The notes under the pieces: generated by a model | What the model was told of the DNA's origin: nothing | The model's database searches: none | The model's input: only the letters and a program-made list of their open reading frames with translations | Translations under genes and position numbers: made by a program | Shown: piece after piece, positions 243-29,078 of the stretch | Layout: each line of letters opens with the position of its first letter | Position numbering within the stretch: the first letter of the stretch is position 1 | Assembly: GCA_041651055.1 (NCBI GenBank) | Contig: JBAZJW010000001.1 | Span: forward strand, 536,506-600,505 | DNA: 64,000 nucleotides | Reading direction: 5' to 3' | Source of the DNA: Minisyncoccota bacterium | Lineage (GTDB): Bacteria > Patescibacteriota > Minisyncoccia > Phycocordibacterales > UBA5272

Positions 243-878
243 CTACACCCCCAAAATAACCCCCTCCAACTTCCCCTTCAAATCCCCCTCACCCCTATGT
301 GCCTCGATACTCGCTCGAAGCAATTTCCCCCCGACACGCTCACATTCATCCTTACTCCACTTTGTAGCTTTTCCGTTTAAGGTATCTTCCCATATTGTTT
401 TCATTTTCCACCACAAGGCTCCGTGAATTGCTTCTGCACTATCTAAATCACGTATCCTCATCCACTCTACCCACGCCCCTTTTTTATCTTTTCTGGCAAA
501 GAGATTACACAACGTAAATACATCGACATCCCGTTCTTTTTGTTCACGAGCGTCGAATATTTTTTCAGAATATTTTTCTAACCGTTTCAGCCTGTTCGCA
601 TCGGCAAAAGGTTCATCGATAATAAAAATATTCGCAGACTCTTTCATGTCTGGAAAAAGTCGAATCACTTCATCTCTCGATGCGGCAACATCCATCACCT
701 GGATAAGATTGGCTATAATTTTTTCTCCAAACAATGTAGATGCAGAAACAAACGGTTCAAGCGTAGCAATTTGTTCGCTGTAAATATGTGCTGAAACAGT
801 ACCATGTTTAAGAAGGGCTTCATATGCCTTTTCTCTTCCTTGTATTCCGGTGCCAACGATTGCGTAAATCATAAGCAT
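243..878 (-). CDS. Hypothetical protein, unrecognised; N-terminus IYAIVGTGIQG without a canonical Walker A lysine. Its C-terminal end lies in an odd pyrimidine-rich stretch (243-430).
   Basis: ORF of 211 aa. A TATACT -10-like hexamer lies 2 nt upstream of the ATG, so the mRNA may be leaderless. No family recognised. Confidence 0.4.
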   Translation of the reverse strand: MLMIYAIVGTGIQGREKAYEALLKHGTVSAHIYSEQIATLEPFVSASTLFGEKIIANLIQVMDVAASRDEVIRLFPDMKESANIFIIDEPFADANRLKRLEKYSEKIFDAREQKERDVDVFTLCNLFARKDKKGAWVEWMRIRDLDSAEAIHGALWWKMKTIWEDTLNGKATKWSKDECERVGGKLLRASIEAHRGEGDLKGKLEGVILGV

Positions 879-966
879 AGTATACTATGCTTCAATTTTT
901 AATTTGAAATTTTTAATTTTTATTGAAAATACAGGAATAACACCTTCTCCATGAATCCTGTTTCCC

Positions 967-1045
967 GTGTCGTTCCAGGCTTGATCCACCAGCTGGCGGA
1001 GGAATCCAAGTGGACACTGGGGGCCAATTTTCATTGGGGCGACAA
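967..1045. promoter_or_regulatory. Diverged copy A of a three-palindrome / cloverleaf-like element (see 8786-8852 and 9485-9547).
   Basis: 3' half ...AATCCAAGTGGACACTGGGGGCCAATTTTCATTGGGGCGACA matches the other copies. The closing helix TGTCG/CGACA differs from TGTCA/TGACA by a compensatory pair. Confidence 0.45.
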
Positions 1046-1103
1046 AGCTAAATACGAACGTTTTGTATATCTAACCTCTAAAGTCTAATATCTAAAATCT
1101 GCC

Positions 1104-3455
1104 TTATATTGCTTGAAGATTCGCCCCGAGGGATCGTGAAGCTTTAATAGGAAGCTTAGAAAGATTTCTTTTTGATAAAACCTGTTCAAGAACATCCACA
1201 ATATCGTCCGCCACTTTCTCAGCAATGTCAGCCTCAATTTCAAACACAAGTTCATCATGAATTTGAAGCGCAAGCTTCACACTTTTTTCGAGATTGTTTT
1301 TTACAATATACTCATTCGCATCAATCATGGCCAACTTCAAAATATCTGCTGCCGTTCCTTGTATCGGGGCATTGATAGCAATACGTTCTCCTTGTGCACG
1401 TAAAAATGGTAAAGGACTTTTGAGTAACGGAACCTCTCGTCGTCTTCCGAGCAACGTCTCGGTATACCCTTGCTTCCAAGCTGCAGCTTTCACCTCTTCA
1501 AGGTAGTCCATCAATCGGACAAACGTCGCTTTGTATTGATCATAAAATTCCTGAGCTTCTTTTCTTTCAACCTTCATTCCTTCTTTAAGTGCGGTCACTC
1601 CCATGCCGTAGAGGATGCCGAAGTTGATGGCTTTCGCCTTTCGTCTCATGTCTGGTGTGACATCATTTTCAGATACACCAAAGACGCGAGCAGCCGTTCC
1701 TGTGTGAACATCAATTCCTTTTTCAAAAATCTCTACGAGATTCTTATCACCTGATAAAATCGCCGCCGCACGCAAGTCTATTTGGGCATAGTCACATGAA
1801 AGAAGTACTGTACCTTTTCCTGCAACAAAGGCCTCTCGCACTTTTCTTCCCAGCTCACTTTTTATCGGAAGGTTTTGTAGGTTCGGTTCTTCACAACTAA
1901 ACCGCCCCGTGCCTGCCCCTGTCTGCACAAAGTGCGCATGTATTCTTCCGTCGTCTTTCACATACGTCGGTAATAAATCAATGTACGTCGAAAGTAATTT
2001 TGTTAATTCTCGGTACTCCAAAATAAGTGGAATAGATGGATGCTCATCACGAATCTTTTCAAGCTCGCTGACATTTGTACTCTTCTGTCCGGTTTTTGTT
2101 TTTTTGATTTTGATACCAAGGTTAAGCTTTTCATAAAGCACCTCCCCGAGCTGTTTTGGTGATGCGATATTAAATTCACTTCCCACCATTTCGTAAATGT
2201 TCGTCTCAAGAATTTTCACCTTCGCATGAAGCTCTTCACTCATCACTGACAACTTGTGCACATCAAGCGTGATACCGTTTTCTTCCATCTGTTTAATGAT
2301 CGCCATGAGTGGCTGTTCCACAGTTTCAAAAAGATGCCACAAATTTTCTTTCTTTAATTCTTCCTCAAGAAATGTACGCATTTCCGCGGCCGTTTTCTTT
2401 CCCGTGATATTTTGAATCTCGTTTACGGGGGCGTTTGTCATTTCGCTGTGAAGCAAGTGCACCATCACACGTAACTCTTCGAGAGTCTCATGGTCAATGT
2501 CTTCTTCAATTTCTTTTTCTTCTGTCTCTACTGTGTGACCGTTTGCCTTCATGCTGTGAAGACGACTTCTAAGAGATCTGAATTCATACAAGTCACACGC
2601 CGCTTGATACTTTTCAATATCCAAACTTTCCAACCATTCTTTTTCTGGTGGCACATATACACTCGGCGCATCGCGTCTGATGGTTGCCAATGTTTTTGAA
2701 AACAGTGCATCCTCCTCCCCTTCTTCGAGTAATTTCACCATACGTTCCTTGAACCCATCATCAATAAGTTGCTGTGGGTTTTTCTTAATCACATCGTACA
2801 TCTTTTCTATGGTTCCGTACTTCTTGATAAGCTCTGTGGCCGTCTTGTCGCCTATGCCTTTGATACCAATAATATTATCCGATGGATCACCGGCGAGGCC
2901 TTTGTAGTCCGGAATATGGTGTGGACCAAAACCAAAACGCTCTTCTACTTTTTTCTCTGTGTACCACACACCTTCATTTCCTTTCTTCAGTGTAAAGACT
3001 GTTACTTGTTCGTCGTCGACAAGTTGCAACGTATCCATATCGCCACTCGCTATCACTACACGCATACCCTTGTCCTTTTTTATTTGCTCTGCGAGTGTTC
3101 CGAGCAAGTCGTCCGCTTCGAATCCTTCACAGGTATAGACCGGAATAGAAAGTGATTCACATAATTTGTACGATTCTTTTATCTGCTCCACGAGAGCGTC
3201 GTCTGACTTTTGTCTCCCCGCTTTGTATCCATCATAACTTGTGTGACGAAAGGTTGGCTTTGGTAAATCAAAACACGCCGCGATGTAATCCGGTTTTATT
3301 TCTTCATATATTTTGAGCACCATGGTAATGAATCCATAGAGCGCTCCTGTCGGTCTACCGTCCTTGGTAGAAAATCCCTGCATGGCATGATACCCACGAT
3401 GAAGTATCGCGTGTGCATCGAGCAAGACCACTGTTTTTAGATTACTTTTTTTCAT
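1104..3455 (-). CDS. polA: DNA polymerase I (5'-3' nuclease domain plus polymerase domain; 3'-5' exonuclease region appears reduced).
   Basis: 783 aa. N-terminal FEN-like motifs (LLDAHAILHRGYHA, GFEADD); C-terminal family-A motifs (DYAQIDLR, KAINFGILYG, QIHDELVFE). Confidence 0.93.
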   Translation of the reverse strand: MKKSNLKTVVLLDAHAILHRGYHAMQGFSTKDGRPTGALYGFITMVLKIYEEIKPDYIAACFDLPKPTFRHTSYDGYKAGRQKSDDALVEQIKESYKLCESLSIPVYTCEGFEADDLLGTLAEQIKKDKGMRVVIASGDMDTLQLVDDEQVTVFTLKKGNEGVWYTEKKVEERFGFGPHHIPDYKGLAGDPSDNIIGIKGIGDKTATELIKKYGTIEKMYDVIKKNPQQLIDDGFKERMVKLLEEGEEDALFSKTLATIRRDAPSVYVPPEKEWLESLDIEKYQAACDLYEFRSLRSRLHSMKANGHTVETEEKEIEEDIDHETLEELRVMVHLLHSEMTNAPVNEIQNITGKKTAAEMRTFLEEELKKENLWHLFETVEQPLMAIIKQMEENGITLDVHKLSVMSEELHAKVKILETNIYEMVGSEFNIASPKQLGEVLYEKLNLGIKIKKTKTGQKSTNVSELEKIRDEHPSIPLILEYRELTKLLSTYIDLLPTYVKDDGRIHAHFVQTGAGTGRFSCEEPNLQNLPIKSELGRKVREAFVAGKGTVLLSCDYAQIDLRAAAILSGDKNLVEIFEKGIDVHTGTAARVFGVSENDVTPDMRRKAKAINFGILYGMGVTALKEGMKVERKEAQEFYDQYKATFVRLMDYLEEVKAAAWKQGYTETLLGRRREVPLLKSPLPFLRAQGERIAINAPIQGTAADILKLAMIDANEYIVKNNLEKSVKLALQIHDELVFEIEADIAEKVADDIVDVLEQVLSKRNLSKLPIKASRSLGANLQAI

Positions 3456-3964: not shown

Positions 3965-6862
3965 TTAGTGAGAAACGTGTCCGTCATCTTTGTACGAAGC
4001 GTAAATACTACGCGCAAGAATAAAGATAATGAAAAGGATTGCAATAAGTGCGAGCCATTCCACGAGGCTATTAGGAAGGAATCCACTTCCTGCTCCGGCT
4101 CCGATAACATGCTTTGCACCAGTGTCTGTATTATTGACACTCTCATTTGGAAGAATAGATCCGACAACATATGCGGTTACTTCATCCTGCACTTGTGTAC
4201 CAGGAACAGAGTATGCGACATATGCCGTAGTCACGATTGTCTTTCCGAGTGGAGCGTCATTATTCACATTTCCGTTCCATACGATGACACCTTCTGTAAA
4301 TGCGTCGAGTGACCCCTGCATGAAAGTGAGCGTGTGTGTCGCACTGTCGTATGTTCCGGCAAGAGATGACACGAATGTAATTTCTTGTGGAACAGTAATT
4401 CTCATGATCACATTATCAAGACGAGTGTTTGAAAGATTCTTGTAGGTCAATTTATAGGAAACATTTGAACCTGTAGAAAGATTTCCATTTGTCTTTTCCA
4501 TTTGAAGTGCGATCAACTTCTGACCCTGATTAAGGAGTGTGGCGGTTGATTGCCCTACGGTAATAACAGAACCATCTGAACAAGTAATCTGATTTTGTTT
4601 CACTGTTGTTACAGCCTTAACGGTCGTCGTCTTTTTGATAACGGTTATAGGCTTCACGTAGGTGACAGCTTTTGTCTTTGTTGTGAAGTGAACGATTTCA
4701 CCTTTCACGAGTCCGTACTGATTTTGCATCACTGCTCGGCAGTAGTATGTCGTCTGTGGCTTGAGGCTTGCGAGAACATTTGAGAATGGTGACGTAAGTG
4801 CAGATCCAATAGACGCAGTAGCTGTCTGACGACCAAGGTTCGCAGTTTCTCCGTACTCAAACCATCCTGTTGATGGTGCACCTTGCGCAATGAGTCCGAT
4901 ACCATTACAGCGAGCACTTGTGTTTGTAATTTCTGTTACAGCACTTGTAACCACGTTGTTGAACTTCACAACTTGTGGTGGTACGTATGGTGCATATGGA
5001 ACACCAACATAACATGTTTGATATACAGGAACACTCGTTCCATTCGCACACACTTTGTACTGTGAAGGGCAAATTGACGTGTGGGGAATAACACTTCCAT
5101 CCCAACATGATTGTGTTGTGATAACTGGAGGTGTATATGTCGTAGCGTACTGTGAATAATTGTATGTTGGGTACGTGTAGTTTACGTTTGTGTTTGAAAT
5201 AACATTCGTAATCGTACAAGCTCCATTACTGTAGGTTGTGTTCACAGGACATGATGTACTGTTAATAGTACAGACACCATTGATCAGCGTTGTCCCAGTA
5301 GGACATGCAGTGATGTTGATCTGACAGATATTGTTGATGAGCGTTGTGCCTGATGGACACATTGTCGTCCCCTGACCAAGACAGGTGCCATTTGTAAAGG
5401 TTGTTCCTGATGGACAAACCACAGGTGCCTGACATACGCCATTGATAAGCGTTGAATTGGTTGGGCACTGTGCTGGGTACTGACATGTTCCATTTGTAAG
5501 TGTGGTTCCTGAAGGGCAGGCTGTCTGATTGATCTGACATGTACCATTCACCATACTTGAACCTGCTGGACATGAAGTTGTGTTGATCTGACATGTGCCA
5601 TTGATTCTTGTTGTACCTGATGGACACGATGTTGAGTTAACCACACATGATCCAAGAAGAAGTGTTGTTCCCGCTGGACATACTGTTGTGTTCACCTGAC
5701 ATGTTCCATTGATGAGCGTTGTACCTGATGGACATACGGTCTGATTGATCTGACAAGTGCCATTTATCATGGTCGTGCCGGATGGACAGATAGTGGTGTT
5801 CACCTGACAAACATTGTTAATTAATGTTGTGCCAGTTGGACACTGAGTATTGGGTACACAGGTATTTCCAGAAAGAGTTTGACCTGCTGGGCACTGTGTT
5901 GTTGGCACACAAACATTATTTATGAGTGTTTGGCCGTTTGGACATTGAGTGGTTGGTACGCAAACATTTCCCGACAATGTCTGACCAGACGGACATTGGG
6001 TTATTGGCTGACAATCATTTGGATAAGTTACTGTGGTTCCATTTGAACAATGCTTTACACAAGCACCCCCGCTTACTAGCGCGTAACCTGGGTAAACACA
6101 TTGACCTGGCATTATTGTTATTTGACATGAGCCGTTTATATATGAAGAACCCGTTGGACAGGTTTGTGTGTGCACTGGACACTGAGAAGAATACATCACG
6201 GTCGTACCGTCGGCACAATAGTAATATGACGGGTTAACAGTTGTGTTCGTAGTGTACCCTGTTCCTCCTGTGTACGTAGACCCAACCCAGCTCGTGCCAG
6301 AATTATATGTTGATCCTGTATAAAGATTGTCTGTGTAAACAGGTGCAGTGGAGTAAGTTGGAGAGGTGTATGAGTACGAAGGAGAGTATAAATATGAGGG
6401 GTACGTTGGTGATGTATAAATTCCAGAAGTTGATGGACTTGTGTAGATTCCCCCTGTTGTATCACTTGTATAAACACCCGAAGATGGGTACGAAGTATAG
6501 ATACCTGAAGTAGGGTCGCTTGTATAAACACCACTTGTTGGATATGAAGTATAGAGTCCTGATGTTGGATCAGATGTATAAATGCCTGAAGATGGGTCAG
6601 AGGTATAAAGACCAGCAGAAGGGAAAGAGGTATATATGCCGGCAGTTGGGTCACTTGTATAAACACCTGAAGATGGATACGAAGTATAGATTCCAGCAGT
6701 TGGGTCAGAAGTATAAATACCTGTGGATGGGTCGCTCGTGTAGATACCTGAAGATGGGTCTGATGTGAAGATACCGTAGTCATCGGCAGACACAATTTGC
6801 GGAAGAATTATGTTTGAACACAAAACTGCAAGAACGAGTGTTGTAAATATATTTTTTTTCAT
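3965..6862 (-). CDS. Large cell-surface repeat protein: signal peptide, about 14 copies of a 9-aa repeat (SGIYTSDPT), about 20 Cys/Thr-rich 18-aa repeats (CPSGTTLINGTCQVNTTV), C-terminal TM anchor.
   Basis: The ORF track extends to 7534, but that N-terminus is frame read-through. Start taken at the MKKNIFTTLVLAVLC signal peptide (ATG at 6862). C-terminal hydrophobic LVEWLALIAILFIIFILA. Confidence 0.75.
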   Translation of the reverse strand: MKKNIFTTLVLAVLCSNIILPQIVSADDYGIFTSDPSSGIYTSDPSTGIYTSDPTAGIYTSYPSSGVYTSDPTAGIYTSFPSAGLYTSDPSSGIYTSDPTSGLYTSYPTSGVYTSDPTSGIYTSYPSSGVYTSDTTGGIYTSPSTSGIYTSPTYPSYLYSPSYSYTSPTYSTAPVYTDNLYTGSTYNSGTSWVGSTYTGGTGYTTNTTVNPSYYYCADGTTVMYSSQCPVHTQTCPTGSSYINGSCQITIMPGQCVYPGYALVSGGACVKHCSNGTTVTYPNDCQPITQCPSGQTLSGNVCVPTTQCPNGQTLINNVCVPTTQCPAGQTLSGNTCVPNTQCPTGTTLINNVCQVNTTICPSGTTMINGTCQINQTVCPSGTTLINGTCQVNTTVCPAGTTLLLGSCVVNSTSCPSGTTRINGTCQINTTSCPAGSSMVNGTCQINQTACPSGTTLTNGTCQYPAQCPTNSTLINGVCQAPVVCPSGTTFTNGTCLGQGTTMCPSGTTLINNICQINITACPTGTTLINGVCTINSTSCPVNTTYSNGACTITNVISNTNVNYTYPTYNYSQYATTYTPPVITTQSCWDGSVIPHTSICPSQYKVCANGTSVPVYQTCYVGVPYAPYVPPQVVKFNNVVTSAVTEITNTSARCNGIGLIAQGAPSTGWFEYGETANLGRQTATASIGSALTSPFSNVLASLKPQTTYYCRAVMQNQYGLVKGEIVHFTTKTKAVTYVKPITVIKKTTTVKAVTTVKQNQITCSDGSVITVGQSTATLLNQGQKLIALQMEKTNGNLSTGSNVSYKLTYKNLSNTRLDNVIMRITVPQEITFVSSLAGTYDSATHTLTFMQGSLDAFTEGVIVWNGNVNNDAPLGKTIVTTAYVAYSVPGTQVQDEVTAYVVGSILPNESVNNTDTGAKHVIGAGAGSGFLPNSLVEWLALIAILFIIFILARSIYASYKDDGHVSH

Positions 6863-7013: not shown

Positions 7014-7979
7014 TCAGTTTCCGGAAATCTTCCGGTATGACTTGAAGCCATAGCTTTTACGGGTCTGTTCGACGAAGTCGGAGCAGGATCCGTTGAAACT
7101 TGCAGGCTTGTCGAAGCGCTTGCCAGCGAGGGTGCCGGCAGAACTCTGGTCATCCTTCGTTGCCGGATGAATCCATGCACATTCGACATTCGAGGTAGAA
7201 CTGAAGACTTGAGCCGCAGAAGAAGAAGGGGCTTGGGTCGTCGTTGGGTCGGACGTCGTAATGGTCGCCGTTGCCACAGCCTGGGGCTGTGAACGGGCGA
7301 GCATCGCGAGTGCGATTGCCACCGCACTGTTGCCGTTGTCGGCCGGCGAGACTTTTGCAACTGCCTTGTGGGCCGTTGCATGAGCCTTCTTGGCTGTCGC
7401 CTTTGCATCGTCTGCCGTTTGCACGGCGGACGATGCTGATGCAAGTGCTGCTGTCGCTTTCTCGTCAGCTGCACTTGCCAAAGCTTTCGCCTTCTCGGCC
7501 TTGTCCTTGGCGGCGGCGGCAGTATTGCCCGCAACCTTCGCCTCAGTCATCGCCAAATTAGCCGTCTGCGCAACCGGGACGAGTTCGCTCCGGTCAGGCT
7601 TGAACCAGGCCAAGGCAACGAGCAGTCCAATCAGCAGTGCAGCCATGATGGCCGCAGCGACGATCCATCCGGTCCGGTTTTGACTCGGGGCCGGCATGTA
7701 AACCACTTGAGGCTGTTGTGCGGGCGGCGGGCTGGCGGGGTATTGCGCTGGACGCAAACCCCCTCCACCCGCTGCAGCCAAGGAACGGGCAGCGTTTGCC
7801 TCCTCAGCCTCGCGCTTGTGTGCGGCAGCCAACGCGTCAGCGTTAGCTACTTCAGCAGCGGCCTCAGCTGCGATTTGTTTTTTCCTGGCAGCCTCTGCCA
7901 GGTCTTCTGCAAAAGCAGCGTCTCGGAGGGTGTTCCCTCCAGAGCTTTGCTGTACTACCGGGGGACGAACGGTTGCCAT
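7014..7979 (-). CDS. Ala/Lys-rich single-pass membrane protein with a C-terminal 2-Cys domain shared with the 8189-8635 protein.
   Basis: AGGAGG ribosome-binding site 6 nt upstream of the ATG. One TM (WIVAAAIMAALLIGLLVALAWF). C-terminus ECAWIHPATKDD...RFDKPASFNGSCSDFVEQ parallels VCAWINPDTKERFDKPASHKGSCPSFVKE. GC-rich. Confidence 0.65.
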   Translation of the reverse strand: MATVRPPVVQQSSGGNTLRDAAFAEDLAEAARKKQIAAEAAAEVANADALAAAHKREAEEANAARSLAAAGGGGLRPAQYPASPPPAQQPQVVYMPAPSQNRTGWIVAAAIMAALLIGLLVALAWFKPDRSELVPVAQTANLAMTEAKVAGNTAAAAKDKAEKAKALASAADEKATAALASASSAVQTADDAKATAKKAHATAHKAVAKVSPADNGNSAVAIALAMLARSQPQAVATATITTSDPTTTQAPSSSAAQVFSSTSNVECAWIHPATKDDQSSAGTLAGKRFDKPASFNGSCSDFVEQTRKSYGFKSYRKISGN

Positions 7980-8063
7980 GATGGCCTCCTGTGGGTTAAT
8001 GGGTTAATTGACAAAAAACACCGTGTCTCGTTAAGGTTATTAACCCTTTCAAAACATATGCAT

Positions 8064-8091
8064 AGTATACATGAAAATATAGATTTGTCAA
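8064..8091 (-). promoter_or_regulatory. Sigma70-like promoter TTGACA-N16-TATACT for the 7014-7979 gene (duplicate of the module at 8715-8742).
   Basis: Read on the minus strand: cTTGACAaatctatattttcatgTATACT; about 39 nt is identical to the second copy. Confidence 0.55.
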
Positions 8092-8124
8092 GGGCTTTAC
8101 TTTTACTCTTAACTTATCAGGTTT

Positions 8125-8160
8125 GTATAAAAACAACCCCTTTCCGCGAAAAGCGTAAGG
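8125..8160 (-). terminator. Rho-independent terminator of the 8189-8635 gene.
   Basis: Minus strand AACCCCTTacgcttttcgcggAAAGGGGTT followed by GTTTTTAT. Confidence 0.6.
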
Positions 8161-8188
8161 GGTTGGGTGGCCAATATGGCCTGACACG

Positions 8189-8635
8189 CTATTGGCGCGT
8201 CGCGATGGAGAATCCAAAGCGACCCGCCACCTCTTTCACAAAAGAGGGGCAGCTGCCTTTGTGGCTGGCAGGCTTGTCGAAACGCTCCTTCGTGTCTGGA
8301 TTGATCCATGCACATACGTTCGCAATTGGGCGACCGGTTGTGGAGTCGACCTTCACGTCGTCAGCCTTTACTGCGGCGCGGGGCGCTTCCTGAGCGCGCC
8401 TGTAGATATCGGCTTTGATGGCCGATTCCTTGGCTCGACAAGCAGCGTCGCTACTTGCGTGTTCGGGGTAGTTCACCCCGCCGATAATGCATTGGGGAGC
8501 CCTGGAAACAGTGCCCCCTTGTTGCATCTGGCCACTCATCTGTTGATTTTGCTGGGGAGGCACCGAGGTGCAACCGGTCAGCAGGACAGCAACAGCAACC
8601 AGGGTAACGGAGACGAGGCGGGAGAAGTTGGACAT
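8189..8635 (-). CDS. Small lipoprotein with the shared C-terminal 2-Cys domain.
   Basis: Start moved to MSNFSRLVSVTLVAVAVLLTGC (lipobox LLTGC), with AAGGAGG 6 nt upstream. C-terminal CAWINPDTKERFDKPAS..GSC motif. GC-rich. Confidence 0.7.
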   Translation of the reverse strand: MSNFSRLVSVTLVAVAVLLTGCTSVPPQQNQQMSGQMQQGGTVSRAPQCIIGGVNYPEHASSDAACRAKESAIKADIYRRAQEAPRAAVKADDVKVDSTTGRPIANVCAWINPDTKERFDKPASHKGSCPSFVKEVAGRFGFSIATRQ

Positions 8636-8714
8636 AATGTCCTCCTTAAAAATGAAAAAGTGCGGAAGAAACTCCTGATACATCAAGGTTAGTCGATGAA
8701 TGAGGATCGAATAC

Positions 8715-8742
8715 AGTATACATGAAAACAGAGATTTGTCAA
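8715..8742 (-). promoter_or_regulatory. Sigma70-like promoter TTGACA-N16-TATACT for the 8189-8635 gene.
   Basis: Minus strand cTTGACAaatctctgttttcatgTATACTgtattcg. Confidence 0.55.
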
Positions 8743-8785
8743 GGCCTTAGTAGGGACACGGACCTCCAGCCGTCATCCATTTTCT

Positions 8786-8852
8786 TGTGTCATTCCAAAT
8801 TTAATTTGGAATCCAGTGAACACTGGACCCCAATTTTCATTGGGGTGACACC
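8786..8852. promoter_or_regulatory. Copy B of the three-palindrome / cloverleaf-like element, about 40 bp upstream of the -35 of promoter 8715-8742.
   Basis: TGTGTCA-ATTCCAAATTTAATTTGGAAT-CCAGTGAACACTGG-ACCCCAATTTTCATTGGGG-TGACACC: three different palindromes or hairpins enclosed by a closing helix. Confidence 0.5.
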
Positions 8853-8887
8853 TTAAAGGTGTCGATTATTTAGAGCTAGTATAATAA

Positions 8888-8925
8888 AAAGCTGCCGGCG
8901 GATGCTGGCAGCGGGGTTGGCACTT
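8888..8925 (-). terminator. Rho-independent terminator of the 8935-9357 gene.
   Basis: Minus strand GCTGCCagcatccgccGGCAGC followed by TTTTTATTA. Confidence 0.55.
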
Positions 8926-8934
8926 TCGTGCAGA

Positions 8935-9357
8935 TCAGAATGAGTTCTCGGCCTTCATTGCGGAGAAAAGCTCCGGGGGTTCCGCGGGCGGCGGCAAGTA
9001 CAGAACGAACTCGAAAGTTCCGTCTGAATTTAGCTTGCCCCAAGTGCGCCCTTGGCAGACCCAGCCGACACCTTTAATCAACTGATATCCAGCTGAGCAT
9101 CCGCCGCCCGGCTGATACAGTGGCGGAGTTTGCGGATACAGAACCGGTGGGATGTATTGCTGTTGGTATTGTTGGTTCGGCTGAATGTAAATCGGCCTCA
9201 CCTGCTGAGGCTGTGTTTGCTGTGCACCCCCTCCTCCTCCATTGAAACAAACATGCCCTCCGTCACCACGAGGGATGCACCCCGACAAGTTGAGAGCACA
9301 TCCGTGCAAGGCAAGGGCTGCAAGCAGTGCTGCTGCCCAGAAAACAAAACGTCTCAT
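8935..9357 (-). CDS. Small Gln/Pro-rich lipoprotein.
   Basis: MRRFVFWAAALLAALALHGC lipobox; AAGGAG ribosome-binding site; GC-rich. Confidence 0.65.
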   Translation of the reverse strand: MRRFVFWAAALLAALALHGCALNLSGCIPRGDGGHVCFNGGGGGAQQTQPQQVRPIYIQPNQQYQQQYIPPVLYPQTPPLYQPGGGCSAGYQLIKGVGWVCQGRTWGKLNSDGTFEFVLYLPPPAEPPELFSAMKAENSF

Positions 9358-9484
9358 GAGATTCTCCTTGAATAAGGTTAATGAAAAGGTGGAATAAATT
9401 CCACCGGACTTACGAATATAAATCTACAGTATTTTTCACTTTTGTCAAGAGTTGTAATTCTACACGTCAAATTCTTTTTGTATC

Positions 9485-9547
9485 TGTCATTCCAAATTTA
9501 ATTTGGAATCCAGTGGACACTGGACCCCAATTTTCATTGGGGTGACA
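9485..9547. promoter_or_regulatory. Copy C of the three-palindrome / cloverleaf-like element, upstream of the 8935-9357 gene.
   Basis: TGTCA-TTCCAAATTTAATTTGGAAT-CCAGTGGACACTGG-ACCCCAATTTTCATTGGGG-TGACA; about 97% identical to copy B. Confidence 0.5.
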
Positions 9548-9644
9548 AATACGAAGATTACTTTACAAACTTTATGAACTTTTTAAACTTTCGACTCCTC
9601 TGTATCCACTCATCACTAATGCCGAATGCCTATATACTGTCTCT

Positions 9645-11345
9645 ATGCCCCTCACGTTTGATGACGCTCTACAAAATCATACGCTCGACGAACTTCGCAA
9701 AGACGAAGAAGAAGAACTCGTAAAACAAATGTCCGATAAATACGGACTACCGTATATCGACTTGCGTGGACTCGCCCCTGAGCCAGACGCTATGCAATAC
9801 ATCAAAGAAGAAGATGCTCGCGAGGCAGGACTTGTTCCTTTCAAAATCGTCGGACGAAAATTGTACATTGCCACCCTCTCCCCTGACAACACACGTCTTG
9901 AAGAATTACTTCGCCCTATCGAAACTCGCGGAACAGAGCTATTACTTTTCTTGTGCTCACATGCGTCACTCAATCATGTGCTTACACGCTACGCAGATCT
10001 CAACCAAGGAGCGAAGGTGGAGAGTGGAATGCTCGAGCTCACCAAAGACAAAATGATGATGCTCATGGAAAGCTTCGACAATATGGATGAATTAAAAGCA
10101 GTCTTTGATGAACTCGCCGCTTCACACGTGCTCTACAAAACAACACGCATGATGGAACTCATTGTCGCTGGTGCGCTTAAATTCGACGCGAGTGATATTC
10201 ATATTGAGCCAGAAGAAGAGCATGTGCGTTTGCGATATAGACTAAATGGCGTATTGGACGATGTTGCTTTCTTTGACTTTAATGATTTGAAAAATCTCAC
10301 CAGTCGTCTCAAATTACTCTCTGGACTAAAACTTTCTACGAGTGCAAATGCTCAGGACGGACGATTCAGTATTAATCTCGGTGAAGTAGAGGTTGAAGTG
10401 CGTGTGTCTATTATTCCTGGGAACTACGGCGAATCGTTCGTAATGCGACTTCTCGACCCCCGTCATGCTATGTCTAACTTGGATAACATTGCCTTTCCTA
10501 AAAAGCTTCGCGAACTTATTGATTACGCCCTCAGTAAACCAAACGGTCTCATTCTCACTACGGGTCCGACGGGGTCAGGAAAGACGACGACGCTCTATGC
10601 CTTCCTTCATAAGATGTATACACCGGAAGTAAAAATTATTACGATTGAAGACCCTGTCGAATACCATCTCGAAGGAATTACACAGACACAGGTGGAAGAA
10701 GAAAAGGGCTACACGTTTATTTCTGGACTTCGTGCCGCACTGCGACAAGACCCGGATATTATTATGGTGGGAGAAATCCGTGACTCCGATACGGCAAAAG
10801 TAGCCATCAACTCTGCCCTCACGGGTCACTTGGTGTTCTCAACACTGCACACCAACAACGCGGCCGGTACCATTCCTCGACTCATTGATCTTGGCGTGAA
10901 TCCAAAAGTTATTGCAGGAGCGCTTTCACTCGCCCTTGCTCAACGTCTCGTGCGAACACTGTGTCCAGAGTGTAAAGAAGCCTATGCGGCTAATGAAAAA
11001 GAGTCTCGTATTATCACCAACATTTTAGGTGAGATGAAAATTTCTGGCAAAGAAGAATCAATGCTGGGACATACTCCGGATATAACGTATAAGCTATATC
11101 GTCCAGTTGGTTGTGAACACTGTAGTGGCACGGGGTACGATAATCGTATTGGAATATTCGAAGCTGTTATGATGAATGCGGAGATTGAAAAGATTTTGAT
11201 AACGAATCCAAGTGAGCGAGAAATACACGAAGCGGCAAAAGGCCAAGGAATTCCAAGCCTTCGTGAGGATGCTATACTTAAAGTATTGGATGGGATTACA
11301 TCCTTTGAGGAGGTTTCTCGTGTTGTCGATTTGATCGCGGAATAG
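9645..11345 (+). CDS. pilB: Type II secretion / type IV pilus assembly ATPase (GspE/PilB family).
   Basis: 566 aa. Walker A GPTGSGKTTTLYA, Asp box IIMVGEIRD, His box LVFSTLHTNNAAG, C-terminal CxxC...CxxC, N-terminal GSPII_E-like domain. Confidence 0.9.
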   Translation: MPLTFDDALQNHTLDELRKDEEEELVKQMSDKYGLPYIDLRGLAPEPDAMQYIKEEDAREAGLVPFKIVGRKLYIATLSPDNTRLEELLRPIETRGTELLLFLCSHASLNHVLTRYADLNQGAKVESGMLELTKDKMMMLMESFDNMDELKAVFDELAASHVLYKTTRMMELIVAGALKFDASDIHIEPEEEHVRLRYRLNGVLDDVAFFDFNDLKNLTSRLKLLSGLKLSTSANAQDGRFSINLGEVEVEVRVSIIPGNYGESFVMRLLDPRHAMSNLDNIAFPKKLRELIDYALSKPNGLILTTGPTGSGKTTTLYAFLHKMYTPEVKIITIEDPVEYHLEGITQTQVEEEKGYTFISGLRAALRQDPDIIMVGEIRDSDTAKVAINSALTGHLVFSTLHTNNAAGTIPRLIDLGVNPKVIAGALSLALAQRLVRTLCPECKEAYAANEKESRIITNILGEMKISGKEESMLGHTPDITYKLYRPVGCEHCSGTGYDNRIGIFEAVMMNAEIEKILITNPSEREIHEAAKGQGIPSLREDAILKVLDGITSFEEVSRVVDLIAE

Positions 11346-11698
11346 TATAAAAATATTCAATAAAACAATATTCAATATGTAGACAAAAGCTTTCGTGTTT
11401 TTGAATATTGATTATTTATCATATTGAATATTCAACTTTTGTCACACAACAAAAGAAAAAGACCTTAGAAAAATCTAAAGTCTTTATCTGTCTCCTGCCA
11501 AAACATATGTACCTCTAAGCAACCCCTTGGTGAAGAACGTTCCTTCATAAGGATAGGCACAGTACGTAACGAGTACGACCAGACCGTCCTTCGAAATAGA
11601 AGGTGAGAATAAATTCCCGATTGTTTAGAGATATATAGGTTCTGACAAGCAACCGCACAAGATAGACCAACTTCTAGATTATATCACATATAAAACTT

Positions 11699-13502: not shown

Positions 13503-13604
13503 GAGTTAGGAGCTAACAGTTAGGGGTTAGGAGAAGTTACTAATACATAAAAAGAGGGCACCTTTGGTGTCCTCTTTTTACTCCTAACTGTTAACTCCTA
13601 ACTC
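13503..13604. repeat. GTTAGG/CCTAAC palindromic module around a bidirectional terminator hairpin (family also at 49640-49764 and 51676-51745).
   Basis: GAGTTAGGAGCTAACAGTTAGGGGTTAGGAG ... AAAAAGAGGGCACCtttgGTGTCCTCTTTTT ... ACTCCTAACTGTTAACTCCTAACTC. Confidence 0.65.
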
Positions 13605-18423: not shown

Positions 18424-18626
18424 AGTACTTAGTATATATAAAATATAATACTAAGTATAGGTCTGTGGATGGTGTGAACTTCCAGAAATCACTTTGTAAA
18501 TTAAAGGGATTTCTGGAAAAATAAATAAACAACAAACGAAAGATGTTACATGAGTTTGTGTACAAGAACAAAGAAACATTCTTAGAGTGAGGATAGTGAG
18601 GTCTTTATCCAAAGGTTGTTCATTGT

Positions 18627-18647
18627 TTATCCACAAAGTTTTCCACA
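18627..18647. promoter_or_regulatory. Two tandem DnaA boxes (TTATCCACA and TTTTCCACA) in the dnaA-dnaN intergenic region; candidate oriC.
   Basis: TGTTTATCCACAAAGTTTTCCACAGAGG read directly. A third near-box TTTATCCAA lies at about 18604. Confidence 0.7.
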
Positions 18648-21840: not shown

Positions 21841-22827
21841 TTATAGTCCATTTAAAGAAGGATCGGAAAGACACGCATTTGCTTCGCAGGCATAATTTTT
21901 TACGAAGGTCATGTTTGTGGCGGAAGGTCCTGGATTAATTGGGCAGGCCCATTTTGGAATCGCACTTGTAAAGCCTGTAGAAGTATTACAATCAGCACTG
22001 GGATCATTTGAATTCATTCCAACTGTTCCGCAGCAGTTGTATGCCGCGAACACGCTTGCAGGAGCAGGAACATTGCCATAGGTTTGTGCTCCCATTTTCC
22101 CAGCCAATAGCTGTGCTCCTCGTGAGATGTTGGTTGCTGGGTCAAGAATAGAACCACTGCATGCACCAGGTTGGTTTATTTGCATGAGACCGCAGTCATG
22201 TGACTGGTTGTCATTCACATGATCAGCATTAACATCTAAAGAGCGATTCTCTTTACATAAAAGAACAATAAGCATCTTTACGTCGACCCCATTATTTGCG
22301 GCTGCTGTTTTTAGGAGGGGTAAATATCGAGTGTAATTACAACCACTAAGAGCACTGCATGTTGCTGCGCCACAAACATTTCCAGAACTAAGAGATGAAA
22401 GAGTGCTTTGGACAGTTGCTGCCGGCACCGCACCCGTCGCAGCCACCCCTCCCGTTCCCGCGGCCCCACCTGTTACCATCGCTCCCCCCTTCACTCCCTC
22501 CGTCTTTAATACCGCAAGCCCAACATCTCCATTAAGTAAATCCTTATTAAACGTATAGATAACAATAAACATAGAAAACACACCAAGTAATCCAACCGTT
22601 ACCCTTTTAAACTCTTCATTCGACATCTTTACATACTTCTCAGACGCAGCCATTCTCCATATACCTGCTAATGCATATCTATAAAAAGCAGCAGCTACAA
22701 TTGCCACAAACAACAACGTATACAAAAACTTAGACGTTGCAAGAAAAGACCCTGTAATCTGTGTAGTGGGAGACACAGCTGCTCCGGTGATTTGGGAGAC
22801 GATGGAGGGTTCGAGGTTTTGGTACAT
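21841..22827 (-). CDS. Membrane-anchored peptidoglycan lytic transglycosylase (2-TM N-module plus SLT-like domain; VirB1-like role).
   Basis: N-terminal two TM helices. C-terminal ENRSLDVNADHV...SHDCGLMQINQ resembles the SLT E...GLMQ catalytic motif. The 5' 320 bp is nearly identical to 24201-25031. Confidence 0.6.
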   Translation of the reverse strand: MYQNLEPSIVSQITGAAVSPTTQITGSFLATSKFLYTLLFVAIVAAAFYRYALAGIWRMAASEKYVKMSNEEFKRVTVGLLGVFSMFIVIYTFNKDLLNGDVGLAVLKTEGVKGGAMVTGGAAGTGGVAATGAVPAATVQSTLSSLSSGNVCGAATCSALSGCNYTRYLPLLKTAAANNGVDVKMLIVLLCKENRSLDVNADHVNDNQSHDCGLMQINQPGACSGSILDPATNISRGAQLLAGKMGAQTYGNVPAPASVFAAYNCCGTVGMNSNDPSADCNTSTGFTSAIPKWACPINPGPSATNMTFVKNYACEANACLSDPSLNGL

Positions 22828-24200: not shown

Positions 24201-25031
24201 CTAGTGTCCACTAAATGAAACATGAAAGTGTTCCGTTGTTGTTAAGGAATCACACCCTGGAGATTCGTCCCAGAATTTAAATCCTCCCCAGGCATACCGT
24301 ATATCACACCCTGTCATCGATCCTGCTGCTGTACCATTTGTTTTAATAAAATTTAAAAGACCAGAAGACAGACTCAAATCCACAGCTTCTTTCCCTACTC
24401 CGTGATTAGAGTTAGCGCTGTGAGGTTCTGTTCCTCCTGTTATGAGAAGGCTGCAGGTTGGACAGGCTGTCCTTAGCTTTTGAAGCATAGTAATGGTTGC
24501 TGGGTTAAGGCCAGCCACATTTGTACACCCTGTGGTTTGTGCTCCAGAACAAGGGTCGTGGTTGATGGATATCCCCGCTAATTGTGCACGAACATCGGCT
24601 TCTGAAGTGCTCGCCCCTGCCGGTACCGCACCCGTTGCCCCAGTCGCCCCTCCTCCACCAAAAACTACAGCCCCTCCACTCACCCCCTCCGTCTTTAATA
24701 CCGCAAGCCCAACATCTCCATTAAGTAAATCCTTATTAAACGTATAGATAACAATAAACATAGAAAACACACCAAGTAATCCAACCGTTACCCTTTTAAA
24801 CTCTTCATTCGACATCTTTACATACTTCTCAGACGCAGCCATTCTCCATATACCTGCTAATGCATATCTATAAAAAGCAGCAGCTACAATTGCCACAAAC
24901 AACAACGTATACAAAAACTTAGACGTTGCAAGAAAAGACCCTGTAATCTGTGTAGTGGGAGACACAGCTGCTCCGGTGATTTGGGAGACGATGGAGGGTT
25001 CGAGGTTGGAATATGATACAGAGGATGCCAT
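24201..25031 (-). CDS. Membrane-anchored peptidase M15-like peptidoglycan hydrolase (same 2-TM N-module as 21841-22827).
   Basis: C-terminal LITGGTEPHSANSNHGVGKEAVDLS and TTEHFHVSF resemble the M15/VanY zinc-binding motifs (SxHxxGxAxD ... EpWH). Confidence 0.55.
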   Translation of the reverse strand: MASSVSYSNLEPSIVSQITGAAVSPTTQITGSFLATSKFLYTLLFVAIVAAAFYRYALAGIWRMAASEKYVKMSNEEFKRVTVGLLGVFSMFIVIYTFNKDLLNGDVGLAVLKTEGVSGGAVVFGGGGATGATGAVPAGASTSEADVRAQLAGISINHDPCSGAQTTGCTNVAGLNPATITMLQKLRTACPTCSLLITGGTEPHSANSNHGVGKEAVDLSLSSGLLNFIKTNGTAAGSMTGCDIRYAWGGFKFWDESPGCDSLTTTEHFHVSFSGH

Positions 25032-25037: not shown

Positions 25038-26012
25038 CTATTGTTTACGAGTATCAAACACAAGATCAATATCAACCTGTGCTTTTTGTAATCTCCTTAC
25101 ACTGTTGTCGACACTGATAGAAAGAGGTCGAGATCCGTAGCTATCTTTCTTTGGTGAAAGTGAAAGAAGTGTCCCTCCTATTGGGGTGATAGGCATACCG
25201 TCTAGTGACCAGTCATATGAAACAGTAGATCCGAGAGATCCTCGAGATGAAAGGAAGAAAGGAACAAGACTTAATGTAAAATCTTTTGTTGTTTCAAATC
25301 GTCGAGTGATAAGGTTTGTAAAATCTGTCCCCAAAACAGCATCATACGTATAAAGAAGAGGCATTACTTTGTGTGGATATATCTCTATGGTGTTTTCTGC
25401 TTTTGTACCATAGGGTGCCGTTGCTATAACTTTTACGGTTGTTGAATCTCTTACATACTCAAGAGGAATGGGTACGGATTGTTTTCCTGCTCCGGAAAGA
25501 GATTCGAGCAGTTCGTCGTTTGCATACCATGTATATGAAATAAGATCTGCCGGAACTTTCTTTCCATTCTCACTCATTGCGGGAATAGCGGAAACACGCG
25601 CTGTTGACCCTTCGCTTCCAAGAGACCTCCCCTCATAAAAAGGAGGAACATATCCTTCGGAGGATTCGTAGAGAAGAGAGACAGATTCAGGAACAAGGCT
25701 TACAGAGGCTTCGAGCGTTGTGCCATTTGCGGTGACTGCTTTCGCACGAAGAGGTAACACTTCACCAGAAGCACCTGTTCGCACGGTTATTTCTTTTTTA
25801 CCAAAACCTGAAAGAATTTGTTTTGTTCCAGAATACCAGGTGATCATCGCAGTAGAAACGTTAAATGAATAACTTGAAAGGGTGAGTGTTACAGAAGAAT
25901 ACGGTGCTGGGCTCGTAGGATTTATATCGATGGTGCCATCTACACTTGACGCAGACGCCACAAAAGGCGTTGTTAAAAAAAGAACAGTTAAAAAGATGTG
26001 GGTTATTTTCAT
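25038..26012 (-). CDS. Secreted protein of unknown function.
   Basis: 324 aa with signal peptide MKITHIFLTVLFLTTPFVASA. Confidence 0.5.
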   Translation of the reverse strand: MKITHIFLTVLFLTTPFVASASSVDGTIDINPTSPAPYSSVTLTLSSYSFNVSTAMITWYSGTKQILSGFGKKEITVRTGASGEVLPLRAKAVTANGTTLEASVSLVPESVSLLYESSEGYVPPFYEGRSLGSEGSTARVSAIPAMSENGKKVPADLISYTWYANDELLESLSGAGKQSVPIPLEYVRDSTTVKVIATAPYGTKAENTIEIYPHKVMPLLYTYDAVLGTDFTNLITRRFETTKDFTLSLVPFFLSSRGSLGSTVSYDWSLDGMPITPIGGTLLSLSPKKDSYGSRPLSISVDNSVRRLQKAQVDIDLVFDTRKQ

Positions 26013-27826
26013 AGACCTCTTGATTGTGCTACTTCATCTTTCATGGCTTTTATTTGAAGAAGTTGAGACGGATCACTTGTGATAATTTGATCTTCTGTAT
26101 ACGATGCTACAATTTTGATTGCTACATGTTTGAGTCCTGCAAAGAATATTCCCTCCCCTACACCAGATTCGAGAAGTAGGAACTTTTCTTCATCAGTTAA
26201 ATTGAAGGTCTTTTGTACAAGGTCGATAGATGAAGGAGATTGTTTGAGGAGAAGTTGAATGGAAGAGTTTGTGATAATAGGAAGACCATAGGGTGACTTC
26301 AAAAAGTCTCCAACATCTTGGGTTATTGTCGCAAGTCCTAGGTAATATTTTCGTCCACGCTTTGCAAGACCGAAAAGGAAAGATGCAGTGTCATCATTTT
26401 TCATCATAATCCACGCTTCATCCACCACGAGAAGTCGTTTTTTGATGACTTTACGAACGGAATTCCAAATATAATGCGTGATAATGTACATTGCTACCGG
26501 CTTCAGTTCTTCCTCCATGTCTCGAATAGAAAAACATACAAGTTTTTTATTGATGTCTACGTTTGAGGGTTGGTTGATAAAGCCAGACCATGTCCCTTTC
26601 GTGTATTTTGAAAGACGCTGAATTAAGTCTGTTGAACCATCGATTCCACCGAGAACTGTTTCGAAGTCTGAAAGAAGAGGTGGCTCAAGTTTTGTGAAAT
26701 CAACATCACCACTAATATCCTTGAGGGCATAGGTCTCTGTAATTGCCTGGTCAATGATTGCGTCTTCGGCTGGTGTGAGACCTCCTAGCATCACACGGAA
26801 CAATCCCACGAGGTTAACGATGTTTGAACGAAGAACTTCAGACGGAGACTCGTCTTCTGTTGGATGAGGAAGATCAAAAGGATTGATATGGTGCTCACTT
26901 GTAAGTGAAATGTCGAAATATCTACCTCCAACAGACTCTGCGAGATATTCGTATTCACGTTCTGGGTCGATAATAATAACTTCCGTGTCGAACATCAATG
27001 TGCGGAGAATTTCCAATTTTGTAAGATAACTTTTTCCAGATCCAGACTTGGCGAATACGATGGAGTTATAGTTTTCAAGAGAAAAACGATCAAACAAAAT
27101 AAGCGAACCGTTGTGACGGTTAAGTCCGTAGAGTATCCCCCTATCAGAAGAAAGGTCAAAAGATACGAAAGGAAAGAATGATGAAAGAGGAGATGTGTTT
27201 AATTTATTTTTGATGCCGAGCAAGTCTTGTCCAAGAGGAAGCGTTGAAAGAAAACCTGTGTCTTGCTGAAAGAGCGCTGGCTTCACATAAATAAGACGAC
27301 TTTCGAGAATATTTTTGATTTCACTTTCTACCTTGTCCACCTCATCTTCACTGCCACCGTAAATAGAAATATACAAAGAGACTTCAAACATTTTTTCCTG
27401 AGCCTGTGTTAATCCGTCACGCAAATCTTCGAGGTCCTTGTAGGCAACATCAAGCGAAGGGTCTCGTACAAGTCCCTTTTCTTCACGTGTCATGATTTGA
27501 CTCTCTACTTCAGCTACCTTGCGTTGAAATTTTTTCATTACATCACCGGTATCAAGCGGTGTCACGTGAATGGCAACGTCGAATACTTTGTCTAAGTTGA
27601 TGATGGGACTCAACCAATTCTCAGAAAGATATCTCGGATATGAAATGACAAAGTAAGAACGTACGATACTTGTGCCTAAGTTGAGTGATTTCGGTTGTAC
27701 ACCAAGAGCACTTGGTGCGATGATGTCTTTCAATTGCATTTCGGCAACTTTGTACACCTGCTCTGGAAGAAGTGGGGATACCGGAGAGTCTTGTTTTTTT
27801 GAATTGAGAAAATCGAAAAGTCCCAT
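26009..27826 (-). CDS. virB4: Type IV secretion ATPase, VirB4/TrbE/CagE family.
   Basis: 605 aa; Walker A FAKSGSGKSY, Walker B LLVVDEAW; length and motif spacing of Gram-positive-type VirB4 (TcpF/PrgJ-like). Confidence 0.85.
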   Translation of the reverse strand: MGLFDFLNSKKQDSPVSPLLPEQVYKVAEMQLKDIIAPSALGVQPKSLNLGTSIVRSYFVISYPRYLSENWLSPIINLDKVFDVAIHVTPLDTGDVMKKFQRKVAEVESQIMTREEKGLVRDPSLDVAYKDLEDLRDGLTQAQEKMFEVSLYISIYGGSEDEVDKVESEIKNILESRLIYVKPALFQQDTGFLSTLPLGQDLLGIKNKLNTSPLSSFFPFVSFDLSSDRGILYGLNRHNGSLILFDRFSLENYNSIVFAKSGSGKSYLTKLEILRTLMFDTEVIIIDPEREYEYLAESVGGRYFDISLTSEHHINPFDLPHPTEDESPSEVLRSNIVNLVGLFRVMLGGLTPAEDAIIDQAITETYALKDISGDVDFTKLEPPLLSDFETVLGGIDGSTDLIQRLSKYTKGTWSGFINQPSNVDINKKLVCFSIRDMEEELKPVAMYIITHYIWNSVRKVIKKRLLVVDEAWIMMKNDDTASFLFGLAKRGRKYYLGLATITQDVGDFLKSPYGLPIITNSSIQLLLKQSPSSIDLVQKTFNLTDEEKFLLLESGVGEGIFFAGLKHVAIKIVASYTEDQIITSDPSQLLQIKAMKDEVAQSRGL

Positions 27827-28469: not shown

Positions 28470-28594
28470 GTGAACCTAGTATATCAGACAAGAGAGAAGA
28501 GACGTGTGAGAAAGTACACAAAAGAGAAGAGGCTACTCTTCTCAATATTCAATGAATTTAATAATCAATATTCAAAAGTGATCCAAATACTAGA

Positions 28595-28615
28595 ATTACA
28601 ATGACCGTCATTGCA
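28595..28615. promoter_or_regulatory. Operator-like palindrome ATTACAATGACCGTCATTGCA (also a perfect 49-bp inverted pair at 33133-33181).
   Basis: CAATGACCGTCATTG is self-complementary. Located in the 180-bp gap between operon segments and preceded by AATATTCAA motifs at 28541-28578. Confidence 0.45.
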
Positions 28616-28649: not shown

Positions 28650-29078
28650 CTACTCTTTTTCTTCTTGATTGTGATCAAACACATCTAATCCAAGAGCTAC
28701 ATCGTGTAATCTGTCTTTGTTTGCTTTTGAAAAAATAACTTCTTTAGTTGTGTCTGCTACCACCTTATCGATATGATCATCCCCCACCGCAGGTGTCTCA
28801 GGCTGCTTCCATGTGTAAATCTTTGCACCAGTGTAATATGCGAAAGCACTTTCTAGTATTTCTCCAAAAGAGCGATTATTTATTTTAACAAAAGCGAGCG
28901 CAAGGAAAAGTCCCGCCACAGGAACGATAAGAATAATGGCAATAATTTTAATGGAAACGAATGTCCAAATAAGAAATGAGAAACCTCCAGCTCCGAGCAG
29001 ATACCCGAACTGTTTTAACGTAAGAGGGCCGACGACTTTGTCTTCTGTATCGATGAATTGTGGTACGCGGAATTGCAT
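28650..29078 (-). CDS. VirB3/PrgI-like small membrane protein.
   Basis: 142 aa, two adjacent TMs, N-terminal FIDTEDKVVGPLTLKQFGYL; position next to virB4. Confidence 0.45.
   Translation of the reverse strand: MQFRVPQFIDTEDKVVGPLTLKQFGYLLGAGGFSFLIWTFVSIKIIAIILIVPVAGLFLALAFVKINNRSFGEILESAFAYYTGAKIYTWKQPETPAVGDDHIDKVVADTTKEVIFSKANKDRLHDVALGLDVFDHNQEEKE

Follow-up and report, generated by a model that had tools for sequence, protein, structure and literature searches.

Two copies of a short element made of three adjacent palindromes lie upstream of the promoters of small secreted-protein genes, next to pilB, in a member of the Patescibacteria/CPR. Is the element a regulatory site of these promoters, or is the property that its copies have in common to be found elsewhere? 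The stretch of DNA analysed, which is 64,000 nt long and is called the window here, comes from an organism that lies near 'Candidatus Nomurabacteria' MAGs and has a genome of roughly 0.77 Mb. Its PilB is 79-90% identical to the PilB proteins encoded in the relatives' loci L003, L004 and L083. The left 22.6 kb of the window is the contig k141_1044737 of ENA ERZ27247363, which ends at about position 22636, and the right part is k141_936812. The window bridges both contigs and thus stems from a more contiguous assembly of the same organism.

The core of the repeat is 63 nt long and is found at 8788-8850 (copy B, minus strand) and at 9485-9547 (copy C). The interval 8786-8852, in which the element was originally marked, consists of the copy B core and 2 flanking nt on each side. 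The first-pass annotation had put the identity of B and C at about 97%. They are indeed near-identical repeats, but the figure is 98.4% (62/63); the sole difference, A versus G, is in the loop of the middle palindrome. The plus strand of both copies reads TGTCA / ATTCCAAATT-T-AATTTGGAAT / CCAGTG-RA-CACTGG / A / CCCCAAT-TTTC-ATTGGGG / TGACA, so that the three adjacent palindromes and the TGTCA...TGACA closing helix are present exactly as first described. The minus strand of copy B, which is the sense strand of the neighboring genes, reads TGTCA / CCCCAAT-GAAA-ATTGGGG / T / CCAGT-GTTC-ACTGG / A / TTCCAAAT-TAA-ATTTGGAA / TGACA. Palindrome 1 is perfect and AT-rich in both copies, with a 10-1-10 arrangement. 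The hairpin loops are 3-4 nt long and the stems have 5, 7 and 8-9 bp. Copy C, together with its flanks, occupies 9480-9552 on the minus strand, where its closing helix is lengthened to 10 bp by GTATc/aATAC and is kept unbroken by a U·G pair. The element is ~75 nt long when this GTAT/ATAC extension is counted in. A 38-nt core has 2 matches in the window, compared to 0.00 expected in shuffled sequences.

Copies B and C are within a GC-rich stretch at 7.0-9.4 kb, in which the GC content of 1-kb bins is 46-59%, compared to about 42% elsewhere. The stretch contains three minus-strand orphan genes, which encode proteins of 321, 148 and 140 aa. None of the three proteins has a Pfam match. The 148-aa protein is also encoded on a 775 kb JGI contig, and a search for its homologs returned the protein itself as the sole match. 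Each of the three genes has its own TTGACA-N16 promoter, with TATACT as the -10 box at two of them and TAGATT at the third. Terminator hairpins, read from the sequence, follow the 148-aa and the 140-aa genes; that of the 140-aa gene, an intrinsic terminator with a GC-rich hairpin and a T-run (8884-8912, minus strand), is absent from the consensus-scan listing. The element had been placed about 40 nt upstream of the -35 regions, and this spacing is borne out for B and C, the two promoters being on the minus strand. That of the 148-aa lipoprotein gene (TTGACA-16-TATACT, 8715-8742) has its TTGACA box at 8742-8737, 45 nt from copy B, and that of the 140-aa gene (TTGACA-16-TAGATT, 9421-9448) has its box at 9448-9443, 36 nt from copy C.

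The locus between the large surface-protein gene and pilB is variable. It spans 7014-9357 in the window, 7573-9644 in L003, 4652-6338 in L004, 8104-9830 in L083, 8208-9809 in L084 and 8177-9802 in L088. Every relative has two or three GC-rich minus-strand orphan genes here, the number and identity of which differ between the genomes. At the variable locus every gene is preceded by a near-consensus TTGACA-N16/17-TATACT promoter of its own, and several are followed by terminator hairpins. A C-terminal domain is common to the 321-aa and 148-aa proteins. The 965-aa surface protein (5200-6800) contains tandem arrays of 27-nt (9-aa, GIYTSDPSS-like) and 54-nt (18-aa, Cys-containing) repeats. A TATACT -10 box is positioned 0-8 nt before the start codons of pilB (9632-9647) and of a 209-aa gene at the left end of the window (870-886), and the arrangement at pilB is conserved in L003 (9985-10003), L004 (7259-7273) and L083 (9988-10003). 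This suggests that the pilB and 209-aa gene mRNAs are leaderless.

A search of the genome and its relatives for further copies, which had been proposed in the first-pass annotation, added two in this genome, a decayed copy A and an intact copy D, and none in the relatives. The covariance model R1 was built from B, C and D and was run on the window with filters off, on 20 kb of flanking DNA from the same genome, and on eight loci of relatives. It recovers just four copies, A to D, in about 84 kb of this genome. The minus strand of copy B scores 97.9 bits, and its plus strand 53 bits. The element is quasi-symmetric because palindromes 1 and 3 resemble each other, and the plus strand accordingly reaches 50-53 bits against the minus-strand model.

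All four copies were recovered by blastn and by the covariance model. Copy D is located at 9394-9456 of contig L089, corresponding to window positions ~64134-64196, about 135 nt past the right end of the window, and is oriented in the sense of the minus-strand genes. The Logan contig L090 also carries this copy. A 339-aa gene ends in an intrinsic terminator 20 nt before copy D, an arrangement that was detected by the consensus scan, and the same type of scan gave no promoter-like site within the surrounding 800 nt. Hairpin 1 of this copy has a 5-nt spacer and arms that are mismatched on one strand, and the closing helix, which includes a bulge, reaches about 10 bp. One Logan contig begins inside copy C, which is typical assembler behavior at repeats.

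Copy A (966-1046, minus strand) is degenerate and scores 37 bits on the minus strand (E about 1e-6) and 13 bits on the plus strand. Two pairs of hairpin 3 are broken, hairpin 2 has a 1-nt bulge, and a 16-nt replacement has altered hairpin 1. The GAAA loop persists, and compensatory changes (TGTCG/CGACA) maintain the closing helix. The predicted fold of copy A is no better than that of shuffled sequence (z = 0 to -1.2); having lost much of the fold, the copy shows that any local function is dispensable. It lies 58 nt past the polA stop codon, in a spacer of ~230 nt between polA (1104-3455) and the 209-aa gene (243-872). The spacer also contains a promoter-like site, TTCAAA-18-TATACT (879-908, minus strand), which would make the 209-aa gene leaderless. 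In L003, L083, L084 and L088, the four distinct relatives whose loci reach this junction, polA and the 209-aa gene either overlap or are separated by 0-3 nt. The spacer with copy A is missing from all four, which points to an insertion in the present lineage.

Searches beyond this genome gave a uniformly negative result. No copies were found by blastn or the covariance model in about 140 kb of syntenic DNA from the relatives (eight loci, five distinct contigs), and a run of the model on about 1 Mb of unrelated loci returned nothing. The exact pattern CACTGGNNNCCAATTTTCATTGGGG has no match in GTDB species genomes; neither the exact pattern CCAATTTTCATTGGGGNGACA nor a pattern degenerate for B, C and D has one in IMG/VR. 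Blastn searches of phage and plasmid collections gave no match. A six-frame peptide search of 5.8 billion predicted proteins, aimed at gene calls that overlap other copies, gave no candidates. Two weak signals were put down to chance. The single match of CCAATTTTCATTGGGGNGACA in JGI metagenomes is in a phage-like coding region that lacks the rest of the element, and a weak covariance-model match in L084, L085 and L087 (14.7 bits, E = 0.6) comes from a TTCCAG...CTGGAA hairpin next to a terminator. To the extent of these searches, the element family is restricted to one species-level lineage.

The first-pass annotation had anticipated that the element as RNA would fold into a four-way junction. 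A structure of three hairpins and a closing helix is the minimum-energy fold of both strands of copy C and of the plus strand of copy B, but on the minus strand of copy B an extra flanking hairpin takes the place of the closing helix. This hairpin is formed by the palindrome GACACCTT-A-AAGGTGTC (8847-8863), which overlaps the 3' half of the closing helix and competes with it in the predicted fold. B and C give z-scores of -5.4 to -6.8 as RNA on both strands and of about -6 as DNA; the minus-strand RNA fold of copy C has an energy of -36.1 kcal/mol (z = -6.8).

C and D differ at 8 positions, and all of the changes are transitions. Four of them make up two fully compensated pairs in hairpin 1, where A-U is replaced by G-C and the arms change from AA/TT to GG/CC. 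Three others give G·U pairs on the gene-sense strand, equivalent to A·C mismatches on the plus strand, and one is in a loop. No pair is broken on the gene-sense strand, compared to three on the plus strand. Counted as cells of the alignment, 78/78 are paired on the gene-sense strand, with three pairs changed on both sides and three changed on one side to G·U, whereas 4 cells are unpaired on the plus strand. Eight random substitutions leave every pair intact in 0.04-1.2% of trials (0.0004-0.012), depending on the transition bias. These substitution statistics are thin, as they come from four copies of which three are intact, and the strand-specific wobble argument alone amounts to about p = 0.06.

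The folding energies show the same asymmetry. Copy D folded as RNA has -39.5 kcal/mol in the gene sense (z = -6.8), compared to -25.4 kcal/mol in the antisense (z = -1.3); with DNA parameters the asymmetry is weaker (z = -4.8 in the gene sense versus -2.8). The loop of hairpin 3 on the gene-sense strand is GAAA, a GNRA tetraloop, and is kept in 4/4 copies including the decayed copy A. The GTAT/ATAC extension of the closing helix is common to C and D, and in C it is continuous only on the gene-sense strand. Between copies, the fold of three hairpins closed by a fourth helix is preserved, and on the gene-sense strand only. Arms that change in sequence with their pairing kept, and in a way that is compatible with G·U pairs on one strand only, are expected of a folded single strand and not of a duplex to which a protein binds. 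Alternatively, the compensated palindrome arms could result from hairpin-templated repair at the DNA level and not from selection on RNA.

All four copies are co-directional with the flanking minus-strand genes. A co-oriented gene precedes three of them: A comes after the polA stop codon, B some 35 nt beyond a terminator and D beyond the terminator of the 339-aa gene. Three DnaA boxes, one of them perfect, are found within 43 nt at 18605-18647, between dnaN and dnaA, and mark the likely replication origin. Copies A, B and C are on one side of this cluster and copy D is on the other. Since the orientation is the same on both sides, it tracks the direction of transcription rather than that of replication. 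Copy C has no co-oriented gene upstream, and a scan for promoters and terminators found no recognizable promoter for it. The element is not itself a terminator, there being no T-run after it on either strand; the real terminators are 20-35 nt before B and D. The scan did list two minus-strand terminator sites inside B and C, but these were rejected because they represent an alternative, 12-bp stem containing G-T pairs, the 'tail' of which is hairpin-1 sequence.

Taken together, these properties make it probable, though not by much, that the element is a small, young and lineage-specific family of dispersed structured intergenic repeats, of the REP/BOX/ERIC/MITE kind, which probably acts as RNA. 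Copying or insertion would have dispersed the family. No target-site duplication is evident in the flanks of A to D, and no transposase was seen in about 84 kb. A transcribed copy would form an RNA four-way junction of high stability in untranslated sequence past the end of a gene, transcription reaching it by read-through past the upstream terminator (B and D) or as part of the polA 3' UTR (A). The junction would then block 3'-to-5' exonucleases and insulate neighboring transcription units. Roles of this kind, as exonuclease barriers or insulators, have been reported for REP/BIME, ERIC and BOX repeats. A role at the RNA level and in the gene sense is favored because of the wobble pattern, the GNRA loop and the orientation of the copies. 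Against such a role, B and D are downstream of good terminators and C has no evident source of gene-sense transcripts, so that the transcription of the element is presumptive. A plain dispersed repeat, the outcome that the first-pass annotation had set against its own proposal, comes close to what is found, except that the fold and the orientation are conserved.

The resemblance to known repeat families is partial. Like REP/BIME and REPIN sequences of Enterobacteria and Pseudomonas, the element is short, extragenic, palindromic and repeated in one genome. REP/BIME are also often found just after genes, are oriented with transcription and lack target-site duplications, and their hairpins are reported to stabilize the upstream mRNA. 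However, a REP is a single imperfect hairpin or an inverted doublet, carries a conserved 5' tetranucleotide and has a cognate RAYT and a high copy number, whereas the present element has three different hairpins inside a closing helix and 4 copies in 84 kb, in which no RAYT was seen. BOX of Streptococcus pneumoniae, ERIC/IRU of Enterobacteria and Correia/NEMIS of Neisseria are likewise small repeats, restricted to a species or genus, with strong predicted RNA folds and terminal inverted repeats. They are co-transcribed with their neighbors and can change how adjacent transcripts are expressed or how stable they are, as the element might. The element differs from them in the lack of a target-site duplication and of any sequence similarity, in its size of 63-75 nt compared to about 100-160 nt, and in being a four-way junction instead of one long hairpin or a modular array. 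The terminal inverted repeats TGTCA...TGACA of B, C and D are also reminiscent of MITEs, but no direct repeat is common to the flanks of A to D, whether the boundary is set at 63 nt or at ~75 nt. No parent insertion sequence or transposase with matching ends was found in about 84 kb of this genome. Among the small structured intergenic repeats, we regard the element as a new family, which stands out for its shape, a four-way junction, and for its CPR host.

The main rival places the function of the fold in single-stranded DNA. The element would then be a non-autonomous substrate of a hairpin-recognizing enzyme encoded at another site in the genome, such as a REP/RAYT system, an IS200/IS605 Y1 transposase or a recombinase acting on an attC-like site, and B and C would be junction copies that flank a 634-nt cassette with a single gene. 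Perfect palindromes with very small loops suit such an enzyme, as does the absence of target-site duplications, which are likewise not known from REP and IS200/IS605 elements. The strand specificity of the fold is also accounted for, G·T being tolerated in DNA folds, and copy A's spacer is missing in the relatives. B and C, as 98% identical direct repeats, bracket exactly one unit of promoter, gene and terminator in a locus of which the gene content varies among the relatives. Integron attC sites offer the closest parallel, since they too are strand-specific sites of folded single strands and bracket single-gene cassettes as direct repeats, as B and C do around the 140-aa gene. Nevertheless, the element lacks the R''/R' core sites of attC (RYYYAAC/GTTRRRY) and its extrahelical bases, the 140-aa cassette has its own promoter and terminator, and A and D are not at cassettes. 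Pfam scans and gene tables covering about 84 kb, neighboring genes included, contain no transposase, RAYT or integrase. A lagging-strand mechanism predicts that the orientation flips across the likely origin, and it does not. The strand asymmetry is much stronger with RNA than with DNA parameters, and the GNRA loop is an RNA-type feature. On this evidence an enzyme substrate at the DNA level appears unlikely, if still deserving of serious attention.

A further reading, which we put forward as speculative and rather improbable, is that the element represents a new class of compact four-way-junction RNA in CPR bacteria, which is mobile or copied via its folded single strand and seeds the boundaries of transcription units. 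The split of the abutting polA/209-aa gene pair, with the gain of a leaderless promoter by the downstream gene, would fit such boundary seeding. The element might also mediate the gain and loss of the variable GC-rich surface-protein cassettes beside pilB.

It is quite doubtful that the copies are separate small RNA genes of about 65-75 nt whose products act in trans or bind a protein. A compact, very stable and strand-specific fold with a GNRA loop would be appropriate to such an RNA, and with no Rfam match it would constitute a new class. The best match of Rfam 15 over the element is WsnRNA46, at 24.0 bits compared to a gathering score of 65.3 (E = 0.17); at copy D there is nothing, and only spurious weak matches appear at E <= 10. 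However, neither strand has a conserved promoter upstream of the copies or a terminator downstream, scarcely any nucleotides remain unpaired that could pair with a target or bind a ligand, conservation does not extend past one species, and one copy is decaying. The statement in the first-pass annotation that the element is not a tRNA was correct: ARAGORN finds a tRNA-Lys at 8-81 only, and no match of the Rfam tRNA clan is obtained at E <= 10. The element does have three hairpins closed by a terminal helix, like a tRNA or tRNA-like cloverleaf, but differs from these in its loops of 3-4 nt, its stems of 5, 7 and 8-9 bp, and in having no anticodon or T-loop.

The interpretation originally offered, an activator, UP-type or composite operator site for secreted-protein promoters, fares worse. 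It holds that dimeric regulators bind the three palindromes in double-stranded DNA and control the small secreted-protein genes. The palindromes are perfect, B and C are at a suitable distance upstream of strong -35 boxes of two lipoprotein-like genes, and A is ~57 nt upstream of the weaker promoter-like site at 879-908. The relatives, however, keep the layout of the locus, with the surface-protein gene, two or three GC-rich minus-strand genes, the divergent leaderless pilB and the strong promoters, and yet the element is missing at the same TTGACA-N16-TATACT promoters in all eight of their loci (L003, L004, L083, L084 and L088 among them). Within the window, the paralogous promoter at 8064-8091 is 91% identical to the promoter next to B and has no element, and there is no promoter near copy D. 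What the copies have in common is thus not a promoter-bound regulatory site. Furthermore, with three unrelated palindromes and an outer inverted repeat (53 nt apart), a genome of this small size would have to supply several regulators, the arm sequences vary between copies with their pairing kept, and the mismatches in the arms of copy D are G·U on one strand only. We regard an operator as highly improbable. Perfect palindromes upstream of promoters need not be operators, and here both the comparison with the relatives and the substitution pattern speak for a folded single strand instead. A mobile promoter unit, consisting of the element and its promoter, was also rejected, because, in the sequence that separates element from promoter, similarity among the copies ends after about 15 nt, and because D has no promoter.

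Least credible of all is a cruciform of duplex DNA that absorbs supercoiling or binds a nucleoid protein between transcription units, for although palindrome 1 of B and C is perfect and AT-rich and the element is situated between tandem or divergent transcription units, a cruciform is strand-symmetric by nature and the substitutions are not, hairpin 1 of copy D has its 5-nt spacer and arms mismatched on one strand, and relatives with the same gene layout lack the element. Several other candidates were discarded. A micro-ORF of 16 codons in the gene sense, MKIGVQC(P/S)LDSKLNLE, lacks a Shine-Dalgarno sequence, starts with an ATG buried inside hairpin 3, and is not kept in A. No short over-represented k-mer of the kind expected of a DNA uptake sequence derives from the element. 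On the basis of anatomy only, a ribozyme or riboswitch (no unpaired core), a CRISPR or TIGR array (the copies are dispersed, not tandem), a DGR (no TR/VR pair) and parS or dif sites were set aside.

Patescibacteria/CPR genomes are usually described as tiny, streamlined and repeat-poor. A young family of structured repeats that is private to one of them is a small counter-example to this description. The element is found at gene boundaries, one copy coincides with the split of an abutting gene pair, and B and C bracket a gene in a variable surface-protein locus. It offers a handle on the remodeling of intergenic regions in CPR genomes.

Several other repeats and palindromes were observed in and around the window. 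At 63613-63755, seven direct A(A/G)GACA repeats are present within 140 nt (39 in 73.6 kb overall). They form an iteron-like array in the 680-nt intergenic region upstream of rsmE, with a perfect DnaA box, TTATCCACA, at 63685. A possible non-coding unit of ~300 nt on the plus strand extends from about 63700 to 64000 and on to about 64045 (L089 9540-9860, minus strand). It starts with a promoter-like site, TTGCAT-N16-TATTAT, which was read by eye and is absent from the consensus-scan listing, and ends with a 17-bp hairpin followed by a T-run (fold z = -5.3). The unit has no convincing ORF and no Rfam match.

The palindrome TACAATGACCGTCATTGTA occurs next to AATAATCAATATTCAAA at 28560-28615, 29153-29197, 33091-33168 and 11350-11410, and also ~470 nt to the left of position 1. 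The copies are mostly intergenic in a type IV secretion-like cluster (TraG/VirB4-like gene at 26009-27826, PrgI-like gene at 28650-29078). This motif is a more plausible candidate for an operator plus promoter than the three-hairpin element. A 300-nt direct repeat, 92% identical, is located at 22438-22737 and 24627-24926, inside two neighboring, functionally unassigned genes of the secretion-like cluster. Simple intergenic repeats of the types (AACTAAA)n and CAGTTAGGAG..GTTAGGA are found upstream of genes at 59025-59071, 46578-46610 and 60435-60467, and also at 13503-13532, 49639-49668 and 51676-51705.
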